In this document: positions 2,193 through 63,504 of the stretch, piece by piece
How positions within the stretch are numbered: the stretch's first letter is position 1
Layout: every line of letters begins with the position of its first letter
DNA from: Patescibacteria group bacterium
GTDB taxonomy: Bacteria > Patescibacteriota > Patescibacteriia > Magasanikbacterales > GWA2-37-8
Direction of reading: 5' to 3'
DNA: 64,000 bases
Assembly (NCBI GenBank): GCA_004321885.1
Contig: SCQK01000007.1
Span: forward strand, 150,540 to 214,539
Notes under the pieces: generated by a model
Database searches by the model: none
What the model saw: only the letters and a program-made list of their open reading frames with translations
What the model was told of the DNA's origin: nothing
Made by a program: the position numbers and the translations under genes

Positions 2193-3692
2193 ATGTCCCG
2201 TAAAATTTTTCTCACAATCTTTCTCGCCGCGCTTTTGTTTTCTTTTGCCAGCGCTGATTTCACGCTGGCGGCGGATTATTGCCGCGTAAAATTAGATGTG
2301 ACTGCTGTCAGTAAAACCACTCTTGCTTGCTACGACATTAGCGCTTTATCAAATTATCCAAAGTTCAAAGGAAAAGAGGCGGGAGATATCTGCAATGAAT
2401 TTTACGGCGACTTGGAAAACCAGGAACCGACCGTTAAAAACTATACAGCCCATGAATGTGTTTCGGCAGAGTCTTTGGAAGAGTGCAAAAAAGGAAATGA
2501 AGCGCCGGCCTGCCCCAAAACAAAACTGGAAGTAATCACAAAATTAACAGCTGAACTAAGACCGCCGGCCACGGCTATCCGCATTCCCGGGCTTTCTTTC
2601 AGCGAGATAAACAAAAATATTACCGAAGACGCGGCGGGAAATAAATATCTCAACATCCCCTGGATAGGTGAAATGCTTACAGCCGTGTACAAATTCGCCA
2701 TCACCATTGTCAGCATCGTGGCCGTGATAATGATTATCATTCAGGGCGCGCGGGTGGTGACATCCGGCGGAGGCGAAGCCAAAATGGACGCGTACAAAAA
2801 AATCATTCAGGCCATCATCGGCCTGGCCATCGCCTGGGGTTCTTACGCGATTTTATATAACATCAATCCGGATTTGGTGACCTTCAAGGCGTTGAAGGTG
2901 AGATATATCCAACCCATACCAATGCCAGAATTCGCGGATGATTTACAAACCACAAAAAATGATACAACCAGTGATTCAAGCGGGTATTCTTCTGTGTTTG
3001 CAAATTGTCCAATAACTCTATCAGCTCCATTTTCGCCAAGTGGAAACCCCGCAAACGAAGCGCGAACAAAAGAATTTTATGACAAAATAAATTCGGTTAT
3101 TAAGGGTACTACTTTAAGCGACAAAATATTACAAATCGCCGAAGCCGCTTCAAAATGTCAGATTCATTTTGGCTCATGCGGAAGAACAATAGGAACTGTT
3201 TATACACTGGCTGGTATTACTACAAAAAGTTACGGCAGTGATTGCTTAACAAAACCAAAAGGATGCTGGACGCATGAACAGTCAAAACAACTTAACACCA
3301 TATCAAGTAGCTTGATAAAATCATTTCCAAACTACCGTTGCGGACGAGATTGTAAAGGAAACAAAGACAGCCCGAGCGGCTGTGCTAATTCGGACAAGGA
3401 AGCGAGAAAAAAAATGTTGAGCACTCTGCTATCTGACTCCAACTTGACCAGTAAAGGGTGGCCGGATACTTGGGCTAATGATTTAAAACCTGGAGATACA
3501 TTCTGGGTTTACAATGGGAATACGAGTTGTTCCGGATTGCATACCGCGTTATTTTTAGGGTGGGCGTCAGATGGCGTCGCAAAAGTTATCCAAGGAGCAG
3601 CTGGCAAAGCGGTTGGTATGGGGTCCATTTGCATCAAAAAAAGTTGTGGGGAAAGAATGAATCCTTTAATAAAAACTTTTCGGCCACAATGA
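2193..3692 (+). CDS. secreted Cys-rich protein with a central VirB2/TrbC-pilin-like double-TM segment and a C-terminal papain/NlpC-P60-like Cys-His region (hypothetical)
   Basis: Signal peptide; two TM helices split by a short loop (TAVYKFAITIVSIVAVIMIIIQG...IIGLAIAWGSYAIL); C-terminal TSCSGLH motif. Confidence 0.45.
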   Translation: MSRKIFLTIFLAALLFSFASADFTLAADYCRVKLDVTAVSKTTLACYDISALSNYPKFKGKEAGDICNEFYGDLENQEPTVKNYTAHECVSAESLEECKKGNEAPACPKTKLEVITKLTAELRPPATAIRIPGLSFSEINKNITEDAAGNKYLNIPWIGEMLTAVYKFAITIVSIVAVIMIIIQGARVVTSGGGEAKMDAYKKIIQAIIGLAIAWGSYAILYNINPDLVTFKALKVRYIQPIPMPEFADDLQTTKNDTTSDSSGYSSVFANCPITLSAPFSPSGNPANEARTKEFYDKINSVIKGTTLSDKILQIAEAASKCQIHFGSCGRTIGTVYTLAGITTKSYGSDCLTKPKGCWTHEQSKQLNTISSSLIKSFPNYRCGRDCKGNKDSPSGCANSDKEARKKMLSTLLSDSNLTSKGWPDTWANDLKPGDTFWVYNGNTSCSGLHTALFLGWASDGVAKVIQGAAGKAVGMGSICIKKSCGERMNPLIKTFRPQ

Positions 3693-32141: not shown

Positions 32142-35100
32142 ATGCAAGCAAAAATTGAACTGCCCAAGGCGCCAATCGGCGCTATCACTCCCGCGCCCAT
32201 CGTGGACGAGATGCGCAAATCATATCTGGAATACGCCATGAGCGTGATTGTTTCCCGCGCCCTGCCTGACGTGCGCGACGGCCTCAAACCGGTGCACCGC
32301 CGCATTTTGTACGCTATGTGGAACATGGGCCTGCGCCACAACGCCAAGTTCCGCAAATCGGCGCACGTGGTCGGCGAGGTGATGGCGAAATACCATCCGC
32401 ATGGCGACTCGGCAATCTATGATTCCATGGTGCGCATGGCGCAGGATTTTTCCATGGGCCACACGCTGGTGCACGGCCAAGGAAACTTTGGCTGTTTCAC
32501 AAAAGATACCAAAGTCAAATTAACTGATGGCCGTGGTTTGAATTTTGAAGATTTAATCAAAGAATACGAATCGGGAAAGAAAAATTTTACTTACTCCATA
32601 AACAATTCCGGTCTAATTTCCATTGCCGAAATAAAACATCCCAGATTAACCAAAAAATCCGCTGAAATAATGAAGGTGGTATTGGATAACGGCGAAGAAA
32701 TCAGATGTACCTTGAATCACCTGTTCATGTTAAGAAATGGAAGCTACAAGGAAGCAAAAGATTTACAAGCCGGTGAATCGCTGATGCCCTTGTATCAAAA
32801 AATTTCCGAAAAAACCGACAAGTTAAACCGCGAAGGATACATCTTAATCCACCAAAACAAAACCGGCGAATGGGTGCCGGCCCACCACTTGGCGGATAAT
32901 TTTAATCTGAATGAAAAAAAATATGCTATAACGCGCGGCAGAGTTCGTCACCATGTTGATTATAATAAATTAAATAATAACCCGGACAATATCATTCGCA
33001 TGCGCTGGGGCGAACACTGGAAAATTCACTACTCGCACGCGAAAGAAATGCATCAAAATAATGAGTACGTAAAAAAACTTGCCGATGGCAGAAAAAAATT
33101 CTGGGCCGATAATAAAAATAGGAAAAAATACGCGGAAAGAATTTCTGTCCGCAATATTAAGAATTGGAAAAATTCGGAATACCGCGAAAAAACGCGTCAA
33201 TTCCTTAGCGAAACAAACAAGGAGTATTTAAAGAACCATCCGGAAAAAATAGCTGAAATTAAAAAGACGGCTTCGGCCACTTTTAAAAAATTATGGTCAA
33301 TACCTTATTATAAAAACTTATTCCACGATAAGATCGTCGCCGCGAACAAAAAAAGAATATCCAACAATACTGGCAAGAAAAAATTCTTGACTATCTGCAA
33401 AGAGGCGTTAAATCGCTTTAAGACAATTAATGAACAATCATACGAGCATGCCCGAAAAAAAGTTTACCCATATGGACGCGCTACGATGTGGCAGACCGGC
33501 TTCAAAAAATACTTTGCTGAAAATTTGGATACACTGACGCAAGAAGCGGTAAAAAACCACAAGGTGACCAAAATTGAATTTTTGAATGAAAAAGAAGATG
33601 TGTTTGATATTACGATTGATAAGTGGCACAATTTCGCTTTGGCCTCCGGAATTTTTGTACATAACTCAATGGACGGAGACAACGCCGCCGCCTACCGCTA
33701 CACCGAAGCCAAATTGGAATCATTGGCCGAAGAAATACTCGCCGACATTGACAAGGAAACGGTAAACTTCGTCCCCAACTACGATGGCTCGCACAACGAA
33801 CCGACCGTCCTGCCGGCCAAGGTCCCCAACCTCTTGCTGAACGGCACAGTAGGTATTGCCGTGGGCATGGCCACTTCCATTCCCCCGCACAATCTGGGCG
33901 AACTCTGCGACGGCCTGATAAAACTGATTGACGACCCGGAAACCACGGTGGAAGAACTCTCGGAAATAATCAAGGGGCCGGACTTCCCCACCGGCGGCAT
34001 CATTTACAATAAAAAAGATATTTTGGCCGCCTATTCCACGGGTCGCGGCGGCATTGTCATACGCGCCAAAGCGGAAATACAGGAAAGCAAATCAGGCCAG
34101 TTCCAAATCATAGTGAGCGAAGTGCCTTACCAAATAAACAAAGCGGCGCTGATAGAAAAAATCGCCGAGCTGGTGCAGGAAAAAAAGATAGACGGCATCA
34201 AGGACCTGCGCGATGAAACCAACAAAGACGGCGTGCGCATCGTTATTGAACTAAAAAAAGATTCATATCCGAAAAAAGTTTTAAACCGCCTGTTCCAGCT
34301 CACCGAACTGCAGACCACTTTCCACACGAACATGCTCGCTCTGGTGGACGGCATCCAGCCGCGCGTTTTGAATCTCAAAAACGTCTTGGAAGAATTCATC
34401 AAACACCGCCAGGAAATAATCCGCCGGCGCACCGAGTTTGACTTAAACAAGGCCAAGGAGCGCGCCCATATTTTGGAAGGCCTGAAAATGGCGCTGGACA
34501 AAATTGACGCCGTGATAAAAACCATCCGCGCTTCCAAAGACAAGGACGAGGCTAAAAAGAACTTGATGTCCAAATTCAAATTCACCGACCGGCAGGCCGT
34601 GGCCATTTTGGAAATGAAACTGCAGCAGCTGGCCAATTTGGAAAGACAAAAAATTGAGGATGAATTGAAAGAGAAAAAACTGCTGATAAAAGAGCTGGAA
34701 TCAATACTGGCTTCCAAAACTAAAATTCTGCAAATAATCAAAAAAGACACGGCCGAGTTGAAGGCCAAATACGGCCGCGAACGCGGAACGCAAATAGTAA
34801 GCCACGGCGTGAAGGAATTCACCGTGGAGGACTTGGTGCCGAACGAACCCACGATTATAATGATTACCACCGACGGCTATATCAAGCGCCTGCCGCCGGA
34901 CACCTTCCGTCAGCAATCGCGCGGCGGTAAAGGCGTAATCGGCGTTACCACCAAAGAAGAAGACAGTGTGGAACACTTACAGGCAACCAACACGCACGAC
35001 AATATCTTGTTCTTCACCAACCGCGGACGCGTATTCCAGTTGATGGCCTATGATATACCGCAAGCCAGCCGCACGGCCAAGGGGCAGGCTCTAGTTAATT

Positions 35101-35780
35101 TTCTGCAACTGGCGCCCAATGAAAAAGTGACGGCCTTGCTGGGCATGAGCGAGCTGGAAAAAATTAAATTCCTGGTCATGGTGACGCGCCAAGGGCTGAT
35201 TAAAAAAACCGCGCTGGAAGATTTTGCTAATGTGCGCAAGAGCGGTCTTATCGCCATCAAACTGAAACCGAACGACAATCTGGAATGGGTCAAGCCATCC
35301 ACCGGCGCGGATGAAATATCCATCGTCACTAAAAAGGGTCAGGCTATCCGATTTAAGGAAAAAGACGTGCGGCCAATGGGGCGCGGGGCCAGCGGCGTGC
35401 GCGGCGTGCGCTTGCACACGGACGACGAAGTGATTTGTATGGATATCGTTGACCCGAAAAACGTCTCGCTGGAGTTGTTTATTGTGGGCGAAAACGGTCT
35501 GGGCAAACGCACTCCCCTGGCGCAATACAAAGTGCAAGGACGCGGGGGCAGTGGCATCAAGACCGCGGCCATCACGGATAAAACCGGATTCCTTATCCAC
35601 GCCAAGGTCATAGACAAAGTGGAATCGGCCGAGCACGATTTGATACTGATGTCGGCCAAGGGCCAGGTTATCCGCTTGCCATACAAATCTGTTTCGGTCT
35701 CGGGTCGCGCCACCCAGGGCGTGCGCCTGATGCGCTTCAAAGAGGGCGGCGACAAAGTGGGAAGCGTGACGTTGTTGTAA
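32142..35780 (+). CDS. gyrA: DNA gyrase subunit A, interrupted by an in-frame intein
   Basis: GyrA N-terminus to ...GQGNFG|C...VHN|[14 protein letters not shown]...; C-terminal beta-pinwheel. Confidence 0.9.
32493..33665 (+). mobile_element. GyrA intein (391 aa) with HNH-type endonuclease motif
   Basis: Starts at Cys right after GNFG, ends HN before Ser+1; internal [16 protein letters not shown]...WGEHWKIH. Confidence 0.8.
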
Positions 35781-35826: not shown

Positions 35827-35898
35827 TGCCCTCGGCGCGAATCGAACGCGCATCACCAGCTTCGGAGGCTAGTGTCCTATCCATTGAACGACGAGGAC
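35827..35898 (-). tRNA. tRNA-Arg (CCG)
   Basis: GTCCTCGTCGTTCAATGGATAGGACA...; anticodon loop CTCCGAA. Confidence 0.75.
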
Positions 35899-38539: not shown

Positions 38540-38612
38540 GCGCCGCTAGCTCAGCTGGTAGAGCAGAGGACTCTTAATCCTAAGGTCCAGGGTTCGATCC
38601 CCTGGCGGCGCA
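38540..38612 (+). tRNA. tRNA-Lys (CTT)
   Basis: GCGCCGCTAGCTCAGCTGGTAGAGC...; anticodon loop CTCTTAA. Confidence 0.7.
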
Positions 38613-38618
38613 CAATTC

Positions 38619-38690
38619 GCCCTCGTCGTTCAATGGATAGGACACCAGGCTTCGAACCTGGTAATGTGGGTTCGATTCCTGCCGAGGGCA
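38619..38690 (+). tRNA. tRNA-Arg (TCG)
   Basis: GCCCTCGTCGTTCAATGGATAGGACA CCAGG CTTCGAA CCTGG... Confidence 0.7.
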
Positions 38691-57037: not shown

Positions 57038-57343
57038 GCGAGGGAAAGCACAGCTTAATGCTTTTGTCGTACGCTCGACCTATTAGTACTCCTCCGCTCA
57101 AGCCATTACTGGCCTTACACGTAGAGCCTATCAACCTTGTAGTCTACAAGGGGTCTCAACGAACATTAATCTTGAAGACGGCTTCACGCTTAGATGCTTT
57201 CAGCGTTTATCCGTGCCGAACGTAGCTACCCGGCAATGCCCTTGGTAGGACAACCGGCACACCAGAGGTTCGTCCACTCCGGTCCTCTCGTACTAGGAGT
57301 GAGCCTTCGCAATGTTCAACGCCCGCAACAGATAGGAGACCGA

Positions 57344-57664
57344 CAATTTTGTTACATTCCCGACTTTCCGCCGACTGGCGGACGGGACGGCGCATTATTT
57401 CTAACACGCTCTGCATGTCGCCATGCAGTTCGGACTATATCTTCCCTGAACCTTATTGGTTCGCGGGTCTAGCGTATAGTCTCTGAGGATTCTCTCTTTG
57501 AGAGTCTTTCCTGCTGGTTGTCTGCACTTGCCGCTTTATTACTTATAAAATAAGTAGCGCAAGATACTTTGGTTTCACTCCTAAATGAAACCTTCCAGAG
57601 TTTCCAGCATTTAGCTAGATTTATAGACAGCGCGGTTTGTGGCTAAGATTAGCCAAACTCTTCC
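57344..57664 (-). mobile_element. group I intron, ORF-less (321 nt), at E. coli L2593-like site (GAGACAGT|...|TCGGTC)
   Basis: 5' exon ends U, intron ends G; S-box AAGATATAGTCC present. Confidence 0.65.
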
Positions 57665-57708
<44 letters not shown>

Positions 57709-57744
57709 TGGCGAACAGCCAAACCCTTGGCAGCTTCTCCACCG

Positions 57745-57780
<36 letters not shown>

Positions 57781-57819
57781 GGACCGTCTATATGGACTAT
57801 CGGGTCCGATCAGCCTGTT

Positions 57820-58683
57820 CATATTACTTCCCCTATTACTAGGAGTACTGACTATATCTTCATCCCAACTTTGCCCAGTCGGGAGTACGGCATATTGTGG
57901 CGCGCGATTTCCTTCACTATGAATGCGCCACCTCGGCCTTAGGCCTCAGTCGATACGGGGTTCTTCATCAATTTTGTACCGCATGCTTTCTATCACATAC
58001 GGGGCAATTATTTTTTGCAGTTTCCTGGTGTCCTTCACGCAAAATTTCAAATCCATGGCTTTTGTTTTTTTTAATTCCAGCTTTGGGTGTAGATTGAAAT
58101 TTTTCGCGAAGACTCGTTTCAGTCCGCTGATGCTTTCGGCGTTCAGCTTGGACAGATAGATATACGCGGTTTTATCGCGTTTATAATAATATCCATCATC
58201 CATAAACCATACTGCCAATACTAGAGGATCAAATAATTTTTCAATTATTTTTGGAACTTGCTTGTCGCCGTTTTCATAAAACAGCGCATGCAATTTTCCA
58301 AACTCTGGCGATGAATGCGACTGGCATCGGTAATAGGCATATTGTTTCCGCCAAATCGGATTAAAACGCGTCAAATACTTTGGTTTTGATTGCATATATC
58401 GTTCAAGCTCGCGCCACTTCCAGAAAATATATTCTTTCTGACGCGAACTATGCTCCAAACGCAATCGCGCGTTTTTCTCGCCGGTTTTTTGCAAAAAACC
58501 ATCGCCTAATACACAGCCAATCGCTATACTTCTTTCGCGTTGATTCATATGTAATGTAATTTAACGCGATGAAGAACTTCCCACGGTATTCCCCTTCCCG
58601 TTTGGGATTCGGGGTTCACCGTTATTAGCCGTTTTCTTGTTCCGATATTACTACCGGAACGGGACAACAACCCTTTCGGGTCT
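57820..58683 (-). mobile_element. group I intron at the L2449 (omega/I-SceI-type) site GGGGAT|...|AACAGGC with LAGLIDADG ORF
   Basis: Exons rejoin to GGGGATAACAGGCTGAT; S-box GAAGATATAGTCAG. Confidence 0.7.
57946..58548 (-). CDS. LAGLIDADG homing endonuclease (intron-encoded)
   Basis: IGCVLGDGFL plus second motif. Confidence 0.75.
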   Translation of the reverse strand: MNQRERSIAIGCVLGDGFLQKTGEKNARLRLEHSSRQKEYIFWKWRELERYMQSKPKYLTRFNPIWRKQYAYYRCQSHSSPEFGKLHALFYENGDKQVPKIIEKLFDPLVLAVWFMDDGYYYKRDKTAYIYLSKLNAESISGLKRVFAKNFNLHPKLELKKTKAMDLKFCVKDTRKLQKIIAPYVIESMRYKIDEEPRID

Positions 58684-58872
58684 ATCCCCGGAGTAGCTTT
58701 TATCCGTTGATCTTCCACTCTCCTATATGAGGTGGTCGGTTCACTAACTTCCGCTTTCGCGACTGCTCGGGTTGTAGCCCTTGCAGTAAAGCCAGCTTGT
58801 GCGTTTGCGCGTCCAGCTCGATTTCCATCCGAGCTAAGCTGACCTTTGTAAACGCCTCCGTTACATTTTAGG

Positions 58873-59809
58873 CAATTGTGTTACCTTAATTTTCCTAACT
58901 TATATTCCATTTTCGGAATAATATAGGGCCTGATGATATTAACGAATTCCTGCACCGATGACGCGAGCAAGTAAATCTGCTTGCCTTCTTTCTGCTTTCG
59001 CAGTTTGGTTGCTATCTTGTATTTATTCGACAGAACCCTTCGCAATCGGCGCAGACAAATATCGGAATAACATTGTGTGTTTAGAATTAACGCCCGATGA
59101 TGATTTGATTTAATGGAACCATCATCCATAAACCATACTGCCAATCCGAGCGGCGTCAGCCATCGATGAATCAATTTAGGCACGGTCTTCTCGCGGCCGC
59201 GATAGAATTGCGCGGCGTAGAAGCGCAGAGCCGGATGACTCACTGTGTTAAACCAATATTTTTTGTACAGCTTGCCGTTCACTGTCTGGTCTTTGATTTT
59301 AGGAGGAGTTATCACCCAATCCTTGAACTTGTCATAAATCCAATCAACGTATGCCTTTTGGCTAAGTCCGTGCTGGACCATTAACCGATAAGCGACGCCG
59401 GAATTATGATTAGATAGGTGACTGTCTCCCAGTAATGTTCCGACCAGTATCTCACGCTGTACTTTTGTTAATTTCAATCCCTTCTTATACTCTCTTAACT
59501 TCAGAGTATTCATAATTTTAAGGACCAAATTTAATTTGGTGCTCTATGTCGCCATAGAGTTCAGACTATATCATTATCCCGACTAAGTCGGGATACCTGG
59601 CATGTAGTCGTTGAGGGGTCATCCCGATTAAATTGGGAGACTTCCCTGCTGGTTGACCGCAGGCGCGCATTTTCACCCCGACGTAACGTCGGGGTAGCGC
59701 GGCCATACTCCGGTTGTTCTAGCATATAGCCAAGTTTGCTTTCAATGTCGCCATTGAAACGCCCTTCGTGATGTTCCAACATTCGTTGGCGTAACGGACA
59801 TCACGACTC
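58873..59809 (-). mobile_element. group I intron in the domain V region (~E. coli 2260) with LAGLIDADG ORF; boundaries tentative
   Basis: Exons rejoin to GGGGCGGTTGCCT|CCTAAAATGTAACGGAGGCG; S-box ATGATATAGTCTGAAC; contains two CCCGAC...GTCGGG hairpins. Confidence 0.5.
58881..59513 (-). CDS. LAGLIDADG homing endonuclease (intron-encoded)
   Basis: VGTLLGDSHL plus second motif. Confidence 0.7.
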   Translation of the reverse strand: MNTLKLREYKKGLKLTKVQREILVGTLLGDSHLSNHNSGVAYRLMVQHGLSQKAYVDWIYDKFKDWVITPPKIKDQTVNGKLYKKYWFNTVSHPALRFYAAQFYRGREKTVPKLIHRWLTPLGLAVWFMDDGSIKSNHHRALILNTQCYSDICLRRLRRVLSNKYKIATKLRKQKEGKQIYLLASSVQEFVNIIRPYIIPKMEYKLGKLR

Positions 59810-60103
59810 AGGCAACCGCCCCAGTTAAACTACCCACCAGACACTGTCTCCTTTGGCCGATTCAGGTCAAAAGATTAGGCATAAATTCATCTAAGGGTGG
59901 TATTTCACTGTCCCCCGACTAGGTCGGGGTCCCACCTATTCTAAACATAAATAAGCTTATGCCAATATCAAGTTGTAGTAAAGCTTCACGGGGTCTTTTC
60001 GTCTAGTTGCGGGTAGGAGGCATCTTCACCTCCCTTGCAATTTCACCGAGTCCCTCGTTGAGACAGTCGCACTATCGTTATGCCATTCATGCGGGTCGGA
60101 ACT

Positions 60104-60811
60104 CCAATTGTTATCACTGTGTTTCCACAATGTTCAGACTATACTTTCATCTTCCCGACAATATTTAGGAGATCTGTTTTTAAATAGCGGCGCGCTCCGA
60201 TGTTATTCATCGTATAGGCACTGGCTATAATTTCCTTTATACCATTTGTCGACAAGTGAAGATTTGACTTCATTGAGCGACAAATTTTTCTCAATATTTC
60301 AAAGTCATTTTGCTTTGAAGTTCTTAGAGGGTATCTGTCAAAGTGCGGCATGATTTTTTTTATCAAATCATCCAGACTTCGCACCTCGTATTTGTACGTC
60401 TGATCATGACTGTCAAAGCGAATACCGCCACAAGCAAAATAATTTTTCAATTCTTCCAGAACCGATAAATTACGCTTGTTTTGGCTGACCGTGAAACTTG
60501 GTCTGACTTCAATCCCGACGGATAATTTATCGCGTCGTGAGAACGAAACCAGAAAGCTTCCTTCGCCATCAACAATTCCCGAAACGTACCAAGGATTTAT
60601 CTCCATATACTGTCTCCTTTCTTGGGAAGAGCCGGCGTGTTGCCCGCTTTTGGCAGGCCTCATCTTTCGATTCAGTCGTTACGGGGCTTTGCTTCCCAGC
60701 AAAGCTTCCCACGGTATTCCCCCATAGGGGTTCACCGTTATGAGCCGGTTTGCTAATATCGCGTCACCGCGATACTCGGGCAAGTATTATCTCCGACCCG
60801 GAGATTTGTTC
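60104..60811 (-). mobile_element. group I intron at the L1931-like site TTGTCGGGT|...|AGTTCCGACC with LAGLIDADG ORF
   Basis: S-box GAAAGTATAGTCTGAAC near the 3' end. Confidence 0.65.
60139..60606 (-). CDS. LAGLIDADG homing endonuclease (intron-encoded)
   Basis: VSGIVDGEGSF; SD AAAGGAGA before the ATG. Confidence 0.75.
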   Translation of the reverse strand: MEINPWYVSGIVDGEGSFLVSFSRRDKLSVGIEVRPSFTVSQNKRNLSVLEELKNYFACGGIRFDSHDQTYKYEVRSLDDLIKKIMPHFDRYPLRTSKQNDFEILRKICRSMKSNLHLSTNGIKEIIASAYTMNNIGARRYLKTDLLNIVGKMKV

Positions 60812-60831
60812 ACCCGACAAGGAATTTCGCT

Positions 60832-61303
60832 CGACGCTTCCTTTTTAATAGCGTTGGACTATATCTTCATCCCCGACTAAGTCGGGGAGCATAGCGTTTA
60901 GTCTCTGAGGATCCTAAACTGTTAAGCCCCTGTTACTGCGTAGTAACATTTAATCGCAAATGCGAATTATCCTCAATCATTATTTTTATAACACCATCGC
61001 ATAAGCGCTCGCTAAAGCACATCTGCAAAAAATTTTGTAGTAGTTTGAAGGTGATATGATTAATGATTAGAGGGGCCTAACGCAATTTTGTTATTAATAA
61101 CATAATTGCATTAAATTAGTTTCCTGCTGATCATCCCGCTTGGGACTTCCCAGCATATGGCTATGATTGGATTATACCACACATCACTGTGCGGTAAGGC
61201 AGCTTTTTTAATGGCTTTGATTTGATCCTCTGCTGATCACGATTGTTTACATATCGCTATCTCCGTCCCAATCCTTGTGAATTCGTGGGTAAACGAATTC
61301 ACA
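60832..61303 (-). mobile_element. group I intron, ORF-less (472 nt), at the L1917-like site CCTAAGGT|...|AGCGAAATTCC
   Basis: Separated from the next intron by a 20-nt exon; S-box GAAGATATAGTCC. Confidence 0.65.
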
Positions 61304-62111
61304 ACCTTAGGACGGTTATAGTTACCGCCGGCGTTCATCAGCGCTTCGGTTCAAGGCTGCCTTCCCGACTAGGTCGGGAAATGACCTCTCCCCTTAACGT
61401 TCTGACACTGGCCAGGCATCACCCCCTATACTTCAGCTTGCGCTTTTGCAGGGAGCTGTGTTTTTGGTAAACAGTCGCAGTGCGTCTTTTGTTGTAATCC
61501 CGACTAAGTCGGGACGGGCCTTATCCCTAAGTTACGGCCGCTGTATTGCAGAGTTCCTAAACGAGGGTTCTCTCGTACGCCTTGGTCTTCTCGACCTATC
61601 CACCTGTGTCGGTTTACGGTACGGTTGCGCGCGACTTAACGATTCATGCCTTTTCTAGGCACCTCTCCGTCTTAAGTTGACTCCACCCGAGGGCTTTGTC
61701 TTCGCCTTGCGGCACGTGTATAACCAAAACACGCTTAAAATTTTGAGATGCGCAACATGAATCAAATCGCGCCCAGTGCTGGAATATTAACCAGCTCATC
61801 CATCGACTACCCCGCCTGGCGGCGGACTCGCCTTAGGACCGACTAACCCTGGGTCGATTCTCGTTGCCCAGGAAACCTTGGATTTTCGGCGCTCCGGATT
61901 CTCACCGGAGTTTTTGCTACTTATGCCTGCATTCTCGCTTCCTTGCACTCCACCACGGCTCACGCCTATGGCTTCAGCGCGCAAGGAACGTTCCTCTACC
62001 ATTCATCTGTATATAAATATACAAACAAATTCGCAGCTTCGGTACCATATTTAAGCCCCGTACATCTTTGGCGCTAAAACTCTTGACCAGTGAGCTGTTA
62101 CGCTTTCTTTA

Positions 62112-62147
<36 letters not shown>

Positions 62148-63504
62148 AAAGAATTAGAACCGCCTTGTTTGCACTTAACATGGATTTAGGGACCTTAGCT
62201 AGCGATCTGGGCTGTTCCCCTTTTGACAATGGCGCTTAGCCGTCACTGTCTGACTCCTGAGATCTGGCTACTGGCATTCGGAGTTTGATTGAAAACGGTA
62301 TCCCGAAGGACCCAATTCTCATCCAGTGCTCTACCGCCGATAGAAACTCTCAAGGCTAGTCCTAGAACTATTTCGAGGAAAACCAGCTATCACCGAGTTC
62401 GATTAGAATTTCTCTCCTATCCACAGTTCATCTCCGCGTGTTGCACGGCGCGTGAGTTCGGACCTCCCCTTCGATTTCTCGAAGGTTCATCCTGACCATG
62501 GATAGCTCACCCGGTTTCGGGTTATGTGCGTGCCACAAACGCCCTTTCAGACTCGCTTTCGCTGCGCCTACGCCCCAGAGGGGCTTAAGCAAGCGGCACA
62601 CATCACACTCGCAGGCTCATTCTTCAATAGGAACACGGTCACCCTTGCGGGCTCCCGCTCTTTGTAAGCGCATGGTTTCAGATACTATTTCATCGCCCTC
62701 TCCGGGCTGCTTTTCACCTTTCCCTCGTGGTACTTGTCCACTATCGATCACCAAAAGTATTTAGTCTTGGACCATAGTCGGCCCGGCTTCAGACGGAATT
62801 TCACGAGTTCCGTCCTACTCAAGAACACTAGCTATGATTTTTTAACTCCTTTCGCGTACGGGACTATTACCCTCTCTGGTTGTTCTTTCCAGAACATTCT
62901 ACTAGGAAGGTTAAAACGCTCACCCGACTTTGCAGAAAGTCGGCGCTAATGTCTTACAACACTCCACAAACAACGGTCTGCACCTTTAAGCCGCGTCAAA
63001 TTAATCTTGCGATCAACCGTTCGCGGCAACATTTATGGAGTTTGGACTTTTCCCTTTTCGCTCGCCGCTACTAAGGGAATCTCTTCGATTTATTTTCCTC
63101 TGGCTACTGAGATGTTTCACTTCGCCAGGTCTTCTTCATGCGGCTATGTATTCACCGCACAATGATCTCTTGCCAATTCCATCTCCAAACTTTTGCTTGA
63201 ACAAGATTGGCTTAGCGTTTCTTTCAGAAACGGAATTGGCAAGAGATCGGGTTTCCCCATTCGGAAATCCCCGGGTCAAAGGTTGCTTGGGACCTCTCCG
63301 AGGCTTATCGCACCCTGCAACGTCCTTCATCGTCTTTTGGTGTCAAGGCATCCGCCATGCGCCCTTGGTAAAATTGCGCACGACAGAAGCACTAAATTGT
63401 GCTTCGTCGCTTACTACCCTATTGCTTTACCACCACACCAAAATTTTTTGGTGTGCGTGGTTTATTTTAAATTGTCAAAGTGCTTTCTTTTGTCGTCCGT
63501 CTCT

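Follow-up and report, generated by a model that had tools for sequence, protein, structure and literature searches.

Inteins with an HNH endonuclease were reportedly first recognised by Dalgaard et al. in 1997, in the B subunit of DNA gyrase (GyrB) of Synechocystis, at a site that we take to be EGDSAGG|S (the bar marks the insertion point). The A subunit (GyrA) is associated with another type of intein: what is called GyrA-a in the literature is the intein of Mycobacterium xenopi (PMC5050341). This Mxe GyrA intein is inserted directly after the catalytic tyrosine (RY|TEA), and inteins of its type have either a LAGLIDADG or a mini architecture. Here we are concerned with the gyrA gene of a Patescibacteria group bacterium (assembly GCA_004321885.1) on a stretch of 64,000 nucleotides (contig SCQK01000007.1, positions 150,540 to 214,539, forward strand), which as a whole is called the window in the following. 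A preliminary description, made by a model from the letters and a list of open reading frames (ORFs), had placed a GyrA intein with an HNH-type endonuclease in this gene. That a predicted intein of 391 residues bearing an HNH module interrupts gyrA is confirmed by our analysis. In our reading, to which we give a probability of roughly 0.9, the insert is an intein of class 1 that carries a homing-endonuclease module and interrupts GyrA in its winged-helix (DNA-gate) domain, at the position of E. coli G110/S111; both splicing and homing are predicted for it.

The insert in gyrA as a class-1 intein

The gene and its parts are given below in positions of the window; residues of the intein are counted from its first residue, Cys1.

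32142-35780, forward strand: gyrA precursor ORF, 1212 aa with the intein (the spliced product would have 821 aa)
32142-32492, forward strand: N-extein, 117 aa, ending in VHGQGNFG and aligning to the N-terminus of GyrA; G117 corresponds to E. coli G110
32493-32807, forward strand: N-terminal lobe of the intein Hint domain (residues 1-105), with the nucleophile Cys1 and block B T73-L-N-H76
32808-33062, forward strand: HNH (beta-beta-alpha-metal) nuclease core (residues 106-190)
33063-33548, forward strand: Lys/Arg-rich helical region, the presumed DNA-recognition part (residues 191-352)
33549-33665, forward strand: C-terminal lobe of the intein Hint domain (residues 353-391), with block F D372 and block G GIFVH390-N391
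33666-35780, forward strand: C-extein, 704 aa plus stop, starting at Ser+1
33699-33701, forward strand: codon of the catalytic tyrosine, Y520 of the precursor, which corresponds to E. coli Y122

Translation of positions 32493-33665 is free of stops and yields 391 aa (precursor residues 118-508) beginning with CFTKDTKV and ending with GIFVHN. These boundaries are exactly those of the preliminary description, which was also right in placing Cys1 immediately after GQGNFG, His-Asn before Ser+1 and the whole insert ahead of the active-site tyrosine. By the offset to the E. coli GyrA chains, G110 and S111 flank the insertion point, and Tyr122 follows 12 residues further on. On either side of the insert the protein is an ordinary GyrA. 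The precursor scores 1122 bits with the NCBIfam GyrA equivalog NF004043 (cut-off 902), and Pfam finds the DNA_topoisoIV domain and six DNA_gyraseA_C repeats (blades), the insert being skipped in both cases. When residues 1-117 are joined in silico to residue 509 and onward, the product aligns without gaps to solved GyrA chains (E 1.7e-93); as judged from this predicted product, removal of the insert restores a normal contiguous GyrA.

The insert itself matches intein profiles far beyond chance. The Pfam model PF14890 (Intein_splicing) gives 84.3 bits (cut-off 35.8, E 1e-23), TIGR01445 for the N-terminal splicing region 39.8 bits (cut-off 24.5) and TIGR01443 for the C-terminal splicing region 22.9 bits (cut-off 15.6, E 7.1e-5). 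In a phmmer comparison with solved inteins, those of DnaE, NrdJ-1, gp41-1, DnaB and RadA match the two ends of the insert, for example the Npu and Ssp DnaE inteins at residues 339-390, and nothing matches the middle. The insert has the Hint fold, divided into residues 1-105 and 353-391 around the nuclease module. The class-1 splicing blocks, which the preliminary description had left to be checked, are complete: C1, T73-x-x-H76, D372 (in DVFDITI), H390-N391 and Ser+1 are all present, and an alignment of 32 sequences shows each of them to be invariant or conserved to at least 90%, with D372, H390 and N391 being invariant among the aligned homologs. The NCBIfam model NF052663 (RtcB_rel_intein2) also matches, over intein residues 1-391 (E 4.6e-43, model positions 78-310), which means that a related, shorter intein sits in RtcB-family proteins. 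By profiles, catalytic residues, fold and the restorable host protein, the insert is a class-1 intein, its splicing being predicted.

The splicing and homing steps considered here follow what is known of the chemistry of class-1 inteins and HNH homing enzymes in general. After translation, Cys1 would undergo an N-S acyl shift aided by T73 and H76 of block B, and the thioester would then pass to the side chain of Ser+1. Asn391 would cyclise with the help of H390 and D372, setting the intein free, and an O-N shift would complete the mature GyrA. Since the insert is only 12 residues away from the catalytic tyrosine, one would expect the precursor to be inactive and gyrase function therefore to require splicing.

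The HNH endonuclease module

At the core of the module is the motif R-H153-H154-V-D-Y-N-K159-L-N-N162-N-P-D-N166-I-I-R169-...-H175-...-H179, which conforms to the family-wide motif R-H-H-x-[DN]-F-N-K-x-N-N-x-P-x-N-[IL]-x-R-...-H-x3-H. The block that the preliminary description had quoted as HNH-like, and not LAGLIDADG, is located at intein residues 152-182, and the assignment holds. Indeed, H154, K159, N162, N166, R169, H175 and H179 are invariant in the homolog alignments, and the intein of the window has kept all of them. In an alignment of GyrA and GyrB inteins together, H154, N162, N166, H175 and H179 are invariant; in another of 56 family members, the HH pair, the equivalents of H175 and H179 and two of the motif asparagines are invariant and the third asparagine is at least 90% conserved. 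Of the PHROGs HNH families, phrog_7545 (E 9e-7), phrog_19902 (8e-5) and phrog_15471 (3e-4) match the intein of the window, phrog_7545 matches all 56 family members, and Pfam HNH_3 (PF13392) matches 31 of the 56 weakly (best E 2.3e-4). The module also resembles a solved HNH nuclease in structure. A LAGLIDADG reading was considered for the module and rejected: there is neither a motif nor a profile match, and LAGLIDADG motifs are found only in a separate second intein of some homologs (see below).

With the caveat that Pfam on the module itself remains empty, the PHROGs matches, the motif, the weak family-wide HNH_3 matches and the fold assign the module to the I-HmuI-like HNH type, with predicted endonuclease activity. 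I-HmuI from phage SPO1 (PDB 1u3e) is a free-standing, intron-encoded enzyme, whereas the nuclease of the window is embedded in a Hint domain and is 18% identical to it. The last motif positions of the module differ from those of I-HmuI in being histidines (H175 and H179), and between the core and the helix-turn-helix (HTH) part there are repeated W-x-D-P-x-Y-R helices. These belong to repeats of about 21 aa (W-x-[DN]-[PS]-x-[YF]-[RK]), of which the window intein has two (at residues 225 and 268) and for which there is no covering Pfam family; the helical region ends in a three-helix HTH-like domain. The number of repeats varies: homologs of at least 470 aa (P0032, P0085, L067 and L074-L080) have 7-9 copies.

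The preliminary description had called such an architecture uncommon, which does not stand. In a protein search at E<=1e-3, 380 clusters were found to be related to the intein of the window, and a scan in which each GTDB species was represented by one genome yielded at least 562 confirmed species-level loci with relatives. Of these the best 80 were kept, and in all 76 that could be resolved the intein is at the same site of gyrA. The window intein is 50-66% identical to the gyrA inteins of 21 proteins and 76 genomic loci. The best protein matches are full-length GyrA inteins of 50-60% identity from Patescibacteria, Nanoarchaeota/Woesearchaeota and Omnitrophota, several of which carry the NCBI name "intein-containing DNA gyrase subunit A". 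Among the best 80 genomic loci there are lineages of the candidate phyla radiation (CPR), namely Magasanikbacteria, Yanofskybacteria, Berkelbacteria, Nealsonbacteria, Kaiserbacteria and others, as well as other bacteria (Omnitrophota, Elusimicrobiota, Endomicrobiia) and DPANN archaea (Nano-, Woese-, Pace- and Micrarchaeota, Diapherotrites). The intein of the window thus joins a large family that is already common in uncultured bacteria and archaea. Inteins that combine Hint and HNH parts in this layout also occur in phage genes, for example in the dCTP deaminase of Aphanizomenon phage CL131, in Bacillus phage SP-15 and in TerL of Lactobacillus phage CL2, one of them being annotated as an HNH endonuclease. 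They are similar to the window intein over the full length or over Hint-N and HNH (28-30% identity, E 1e-25 to 7e-33), but reside in other host genes and have a lower identity.

Once excised, the intein of 45 kDa would act as a site-specific HNH endonuclease on an intein-less gyrA, cutting at or near CAAGGAAACTTTGGC^TCAATGGACGGAGAC (GGC^TCA), the intein-less target site being written out as GTGCACGGCCAAGGAAACTTTGGC^TCAATGGACGGAGACAACGCCGCC. The target would be recognised through the helical/HTH region. H154 is likely the general base, and H175, H179 and asparagine may be metal or structural ligands; by analogy with I-HmuI, the enzyme could also act as a nickase. In the recombinational repair that follows, the intein-plus allele would serve as template, and the cut allele would thereby acquire the intein. 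Some horizontal movement of this kind is suggested by the fact that in 67 loci the pairwise identities of inteins and exteins are only weakly correlated (rho 0.31) and that the nearest neighbor belongs to the other domain of life for 10 of the 67 inteins as compared to 3 of the 67 exteins; this is not phylogenetic proof and depends on the labels of metagenome-assembled genomes (MAGs).

It should be noted that several points weigh against an intein with a homing HNH endonuclease. Neither the internal module of the window (254 aa) nor its 75-aa core finds any Pfam family at E<=10, so that of the profile comparison proposed in the preliminary description the intein part came out above the cut-offs and the HNH part came out with PHROGs and not with Pfam. 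A profile of the HNH region built from the 56 members finds no HNH protein among the PDB sequences; its only matches, to oxygenase beta subunits (E 0.003), are spurious. Whether a relative counts as bacterial or archaeal was read from the titles of MAG records, and some of these are unreliable. Finally, the G+C content at third codon positions (GC3) is 0.43 in the intein, 0.74 in the N-extein and 0.66 in the C-extein. The low value was considered as proof of recent acquisition and rejected as such, because the deficit is family-wide and tracks host GC3: in 66 homologous loci the GC3 of the intein is on average 0.10 below that of the exteins and correlates with that of the host (r 0.88).

Of the alternatives, the one that survives best is that splicing persists while the HNH module has become an inactive relic, the element being inherited vertically without homing. 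The close tracking of host GC3 would fit, as it implies long residence, and so would the fact that many inteins carry decayed endonucleases. Indeed, in several members of the present family the module is shortened or lost (251-337 aa), and the strict HH..K motif is missing in 4 of the 76 resolvable loci. The exteins of the window are closest to those of two Magasanikbacteria MAGs (L001 and L063; 80-82% identity), which have an intein at the same site, and this is compatible with vertical descent; however, the inteins of these two are only 64-66% identical to that of the window. The window copy is of full length and has kept every invariant HNH residue; that these residues do not vary over 56 sequences of only about 50% identity implies that the nuclease is under selection in the family. 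We regard a relic as unlikely, although a serious possibility, and hold to a probably homing-competent intein; the nuclease-deleted members also fit a homing cycle of invasion, decay and loss.

Insertion site and relationship to other gyrase inteins

The junction G-[QH]-G-N-[FWML]-G|C...HN|S is found in 21 of 21 complete GyrA protein homologs and likewise in the 76 resolvable loci. In calling this site "canonical GNFG|S" and at the same time "gyrA-a", the preliminary description conflated two different sites, because the Mxe-type site, RY|TEA, is 12 residues further downstream. The two sites can even be occupied together: in one protein homolog (P0021) and three genomic loci (L013, L021 and L052), the gyrA gene with the HNH intein contains a second intein directly after the catalytic tyrosine (AAMRY|C...HN|TEA). 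This second intein carries LAGLIDADG motifs, and that of L013 matches the Mxe GyrA intein (1am2) with E 1.6e-17. Its positions in the three loci are:

L013, 4210-5523: second (RY|TEA) intein
L021, 4219 onward: second (RY|TEA) intein
L052, 4210 onward: second (RY|TEA) intein

The NCBIfam model NF038098 (GyrA_w_intein) runs straight through the second intein of L013 (residues 509-1507 on model positions 105-1089), whereas with the protein of the window it gives 886 bits, as compared to a cut-off of 1850, and skips the insert. At a distance of only 12 codons, the HNH intein and the Mxe-like LAGLIDADG intein could hamper one another in homing (compare PMC10643990).

One could imagine, as the preliminary description implicitly did, that the intein of the window is a classical GyrA-a intein in which the LAGLIDADG endonuclease was swapped for an HNH module. 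This is highly improbable, since the insertion points differ (G|S here and Y|T in the Mxe type), since both inteins occur side by side in the four genes just named, and since outside gyrA it is GyrB inteins that are most closely related to it. With 1am2 the identity is 16%, and 1am2 was not found among the phmmer matches of the window intein at E<=1, there being no detectable sequence relation. By site and by relatedness the intein is not of the GyrA-a (Mxe-type) allele.

The GyrB inteins in question are those at the Toprim site EGDSAGG|C...HN|SAKQGR, among them a cyanobacterial one (P0118); the Ssp GyrB intein presumably belongs to the same set, as the cyanobacterial member suggests. The GyrB inteins share with the intein of the window 34-37% identity at 100% coverage (E 1e-50 to 1e-60), the order Hint-N, HNH, helical region, Hint-C, the motif HH-x-[DN]-F-N-K-x-N-N...H...H, the ending FALASG[VI]FVHN|S, and glycine at -1 together with serine at +1. 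They differ in the host gene, which is gyrB rather than gyrA, and in length (about 435 aa as compared to 391 aa), the helical/HTH region being shorter in the window intein. By region, the identity is 51% for Hint-N, 34% for HNH, 18% for the helical/HTH region and 55% for Hint-C. The helical/HTH region is the most divergent one, and what changed is therefore the putative DNA-recognition part. As far as sequences can tell, the gyrA G|S inteins and the gyrB HNH inteins form one lineage, with homology over the full length including the endonuclease module and with a uniform site in gyrA. This suggests that the element jumped from one gyrase gene to the other and was then re-targeted.

Although lineage-specific insertions exist in some GyrA and GyrB proteins, there is hardly any chance that the insert is such a structural insertion, kept in the mature protein and not a splicing element, because it has the Hint fold with all catalytic residues and exact C1 and HN|S boundaries, interrupts an otherwise gapless, highly conserved loop beside the catalytic tyrosine and is patchily distributed over unrelated phyla and both domains of life.

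A further-reaching interpretation of the intein family is tentative, and we would put it somewhat below even odds. It holds that G110|S111 is a distinct gyrA site undescribed in the intein literature and occupied by a sister lineage of the GyrB HNH intein, that the jump between gyrA and gyrB was made by re-modelling the helical/HTH region, and that the element circulates across the boundary between bacteria and archaea in ultra-small CPR and DPANN organisms, sometimes stacked with a LAGLIDADG intein 12 codons away. Neither a name nor a description of the G110|S111 site, and no description of the GyrB sisterhood, the cross-domain spread or the stacking, was found in the searchable literature, in a search that was far from exhaustive.

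Genomic context and significance

The neighbors of gyrA are ordinary chromosomal genes, namely those for RecG, TopA and GlmS and a FemAB-family gene. Immediately next to the 3' end of gyrA, a tRNA gene (35827-35898, reverse strand) lies on the other strand, and 2.8 kb downstream there is a pair of tRNA genes (38540-38690, forward strand); there is no sign of a link between these gyrA-adjacent tRNA genes and the intein. Elsewhere in the window, the 23S rRNA gene (57075-63378, reverse strand) has at least three insertions, and the 64 kb thus contain four homing-type elements if the intein is counted. Group I introns with homing-endonuclease ORFs in the 23S rRNA gene are a hallmark of CPR bacteria (compare PMC11270868). 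The features within the gene are:

59542-59780, reverse strand: group I intron (Rfam)
57411-57693, reverse strand: group I intron (Rfam)
58881-59528, reverse strand: ORF near the group I introns, Pfam LAGLIDADG_2 (E 2e-46)
57946-58548, reverse strand: ORF near the group I introns, Pfam LAGLIDADG_2 (E 2e-36)
60033-61196, reverse strand: third gap in the 23S rRNA gene, with an ORF of 174 aa (60139-60663, reverse strand) that has a LAGLIDADG-like motif, SGIVDGEGSF

In the window, three ORFs have a GC3 of less than 0.5: both LAGLIDADG ORFs of the rRNA introns (0.43 and 0.49) and the ORF at 2193-3692 (forward strand, 499 aa). The latter has a G+C content of 0.44 and a GC3 of 0.43, as compared to about 0.6 for the GC3 of its neighbors, and may be foreign DNA.

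To a specialist nothing here is surprising, and what newness remains is at the level of the family: the separate site in gyrA, the sisterhood with GyrB inteins, the spread across domains and the stacking of two inteins. As regards annotation, gyrA is an ordinary essential gene that is predicted to need protein splicing. The length of 1212 aa, together with an NCBI model for intein-containing GyrA that was built for another site, could mislead the automatic naming of such proteins. Relatives of the GyrB inteins already serve as split inteins, for example the Ssp GyrB split intein (PMC7765530), and a compact relative with Cys1, Ser+1 and glycine at -1 might have some biotechnological use. For the biology of inteins, the family offers natural material on the re-targeting of an HNH homing endonuclease between gyrB and gyrA, on the co-existence of two inteins 12 codons apart in one gene, and on the question of whether homing elements cross between CPR bacteria and DPANN archaea.

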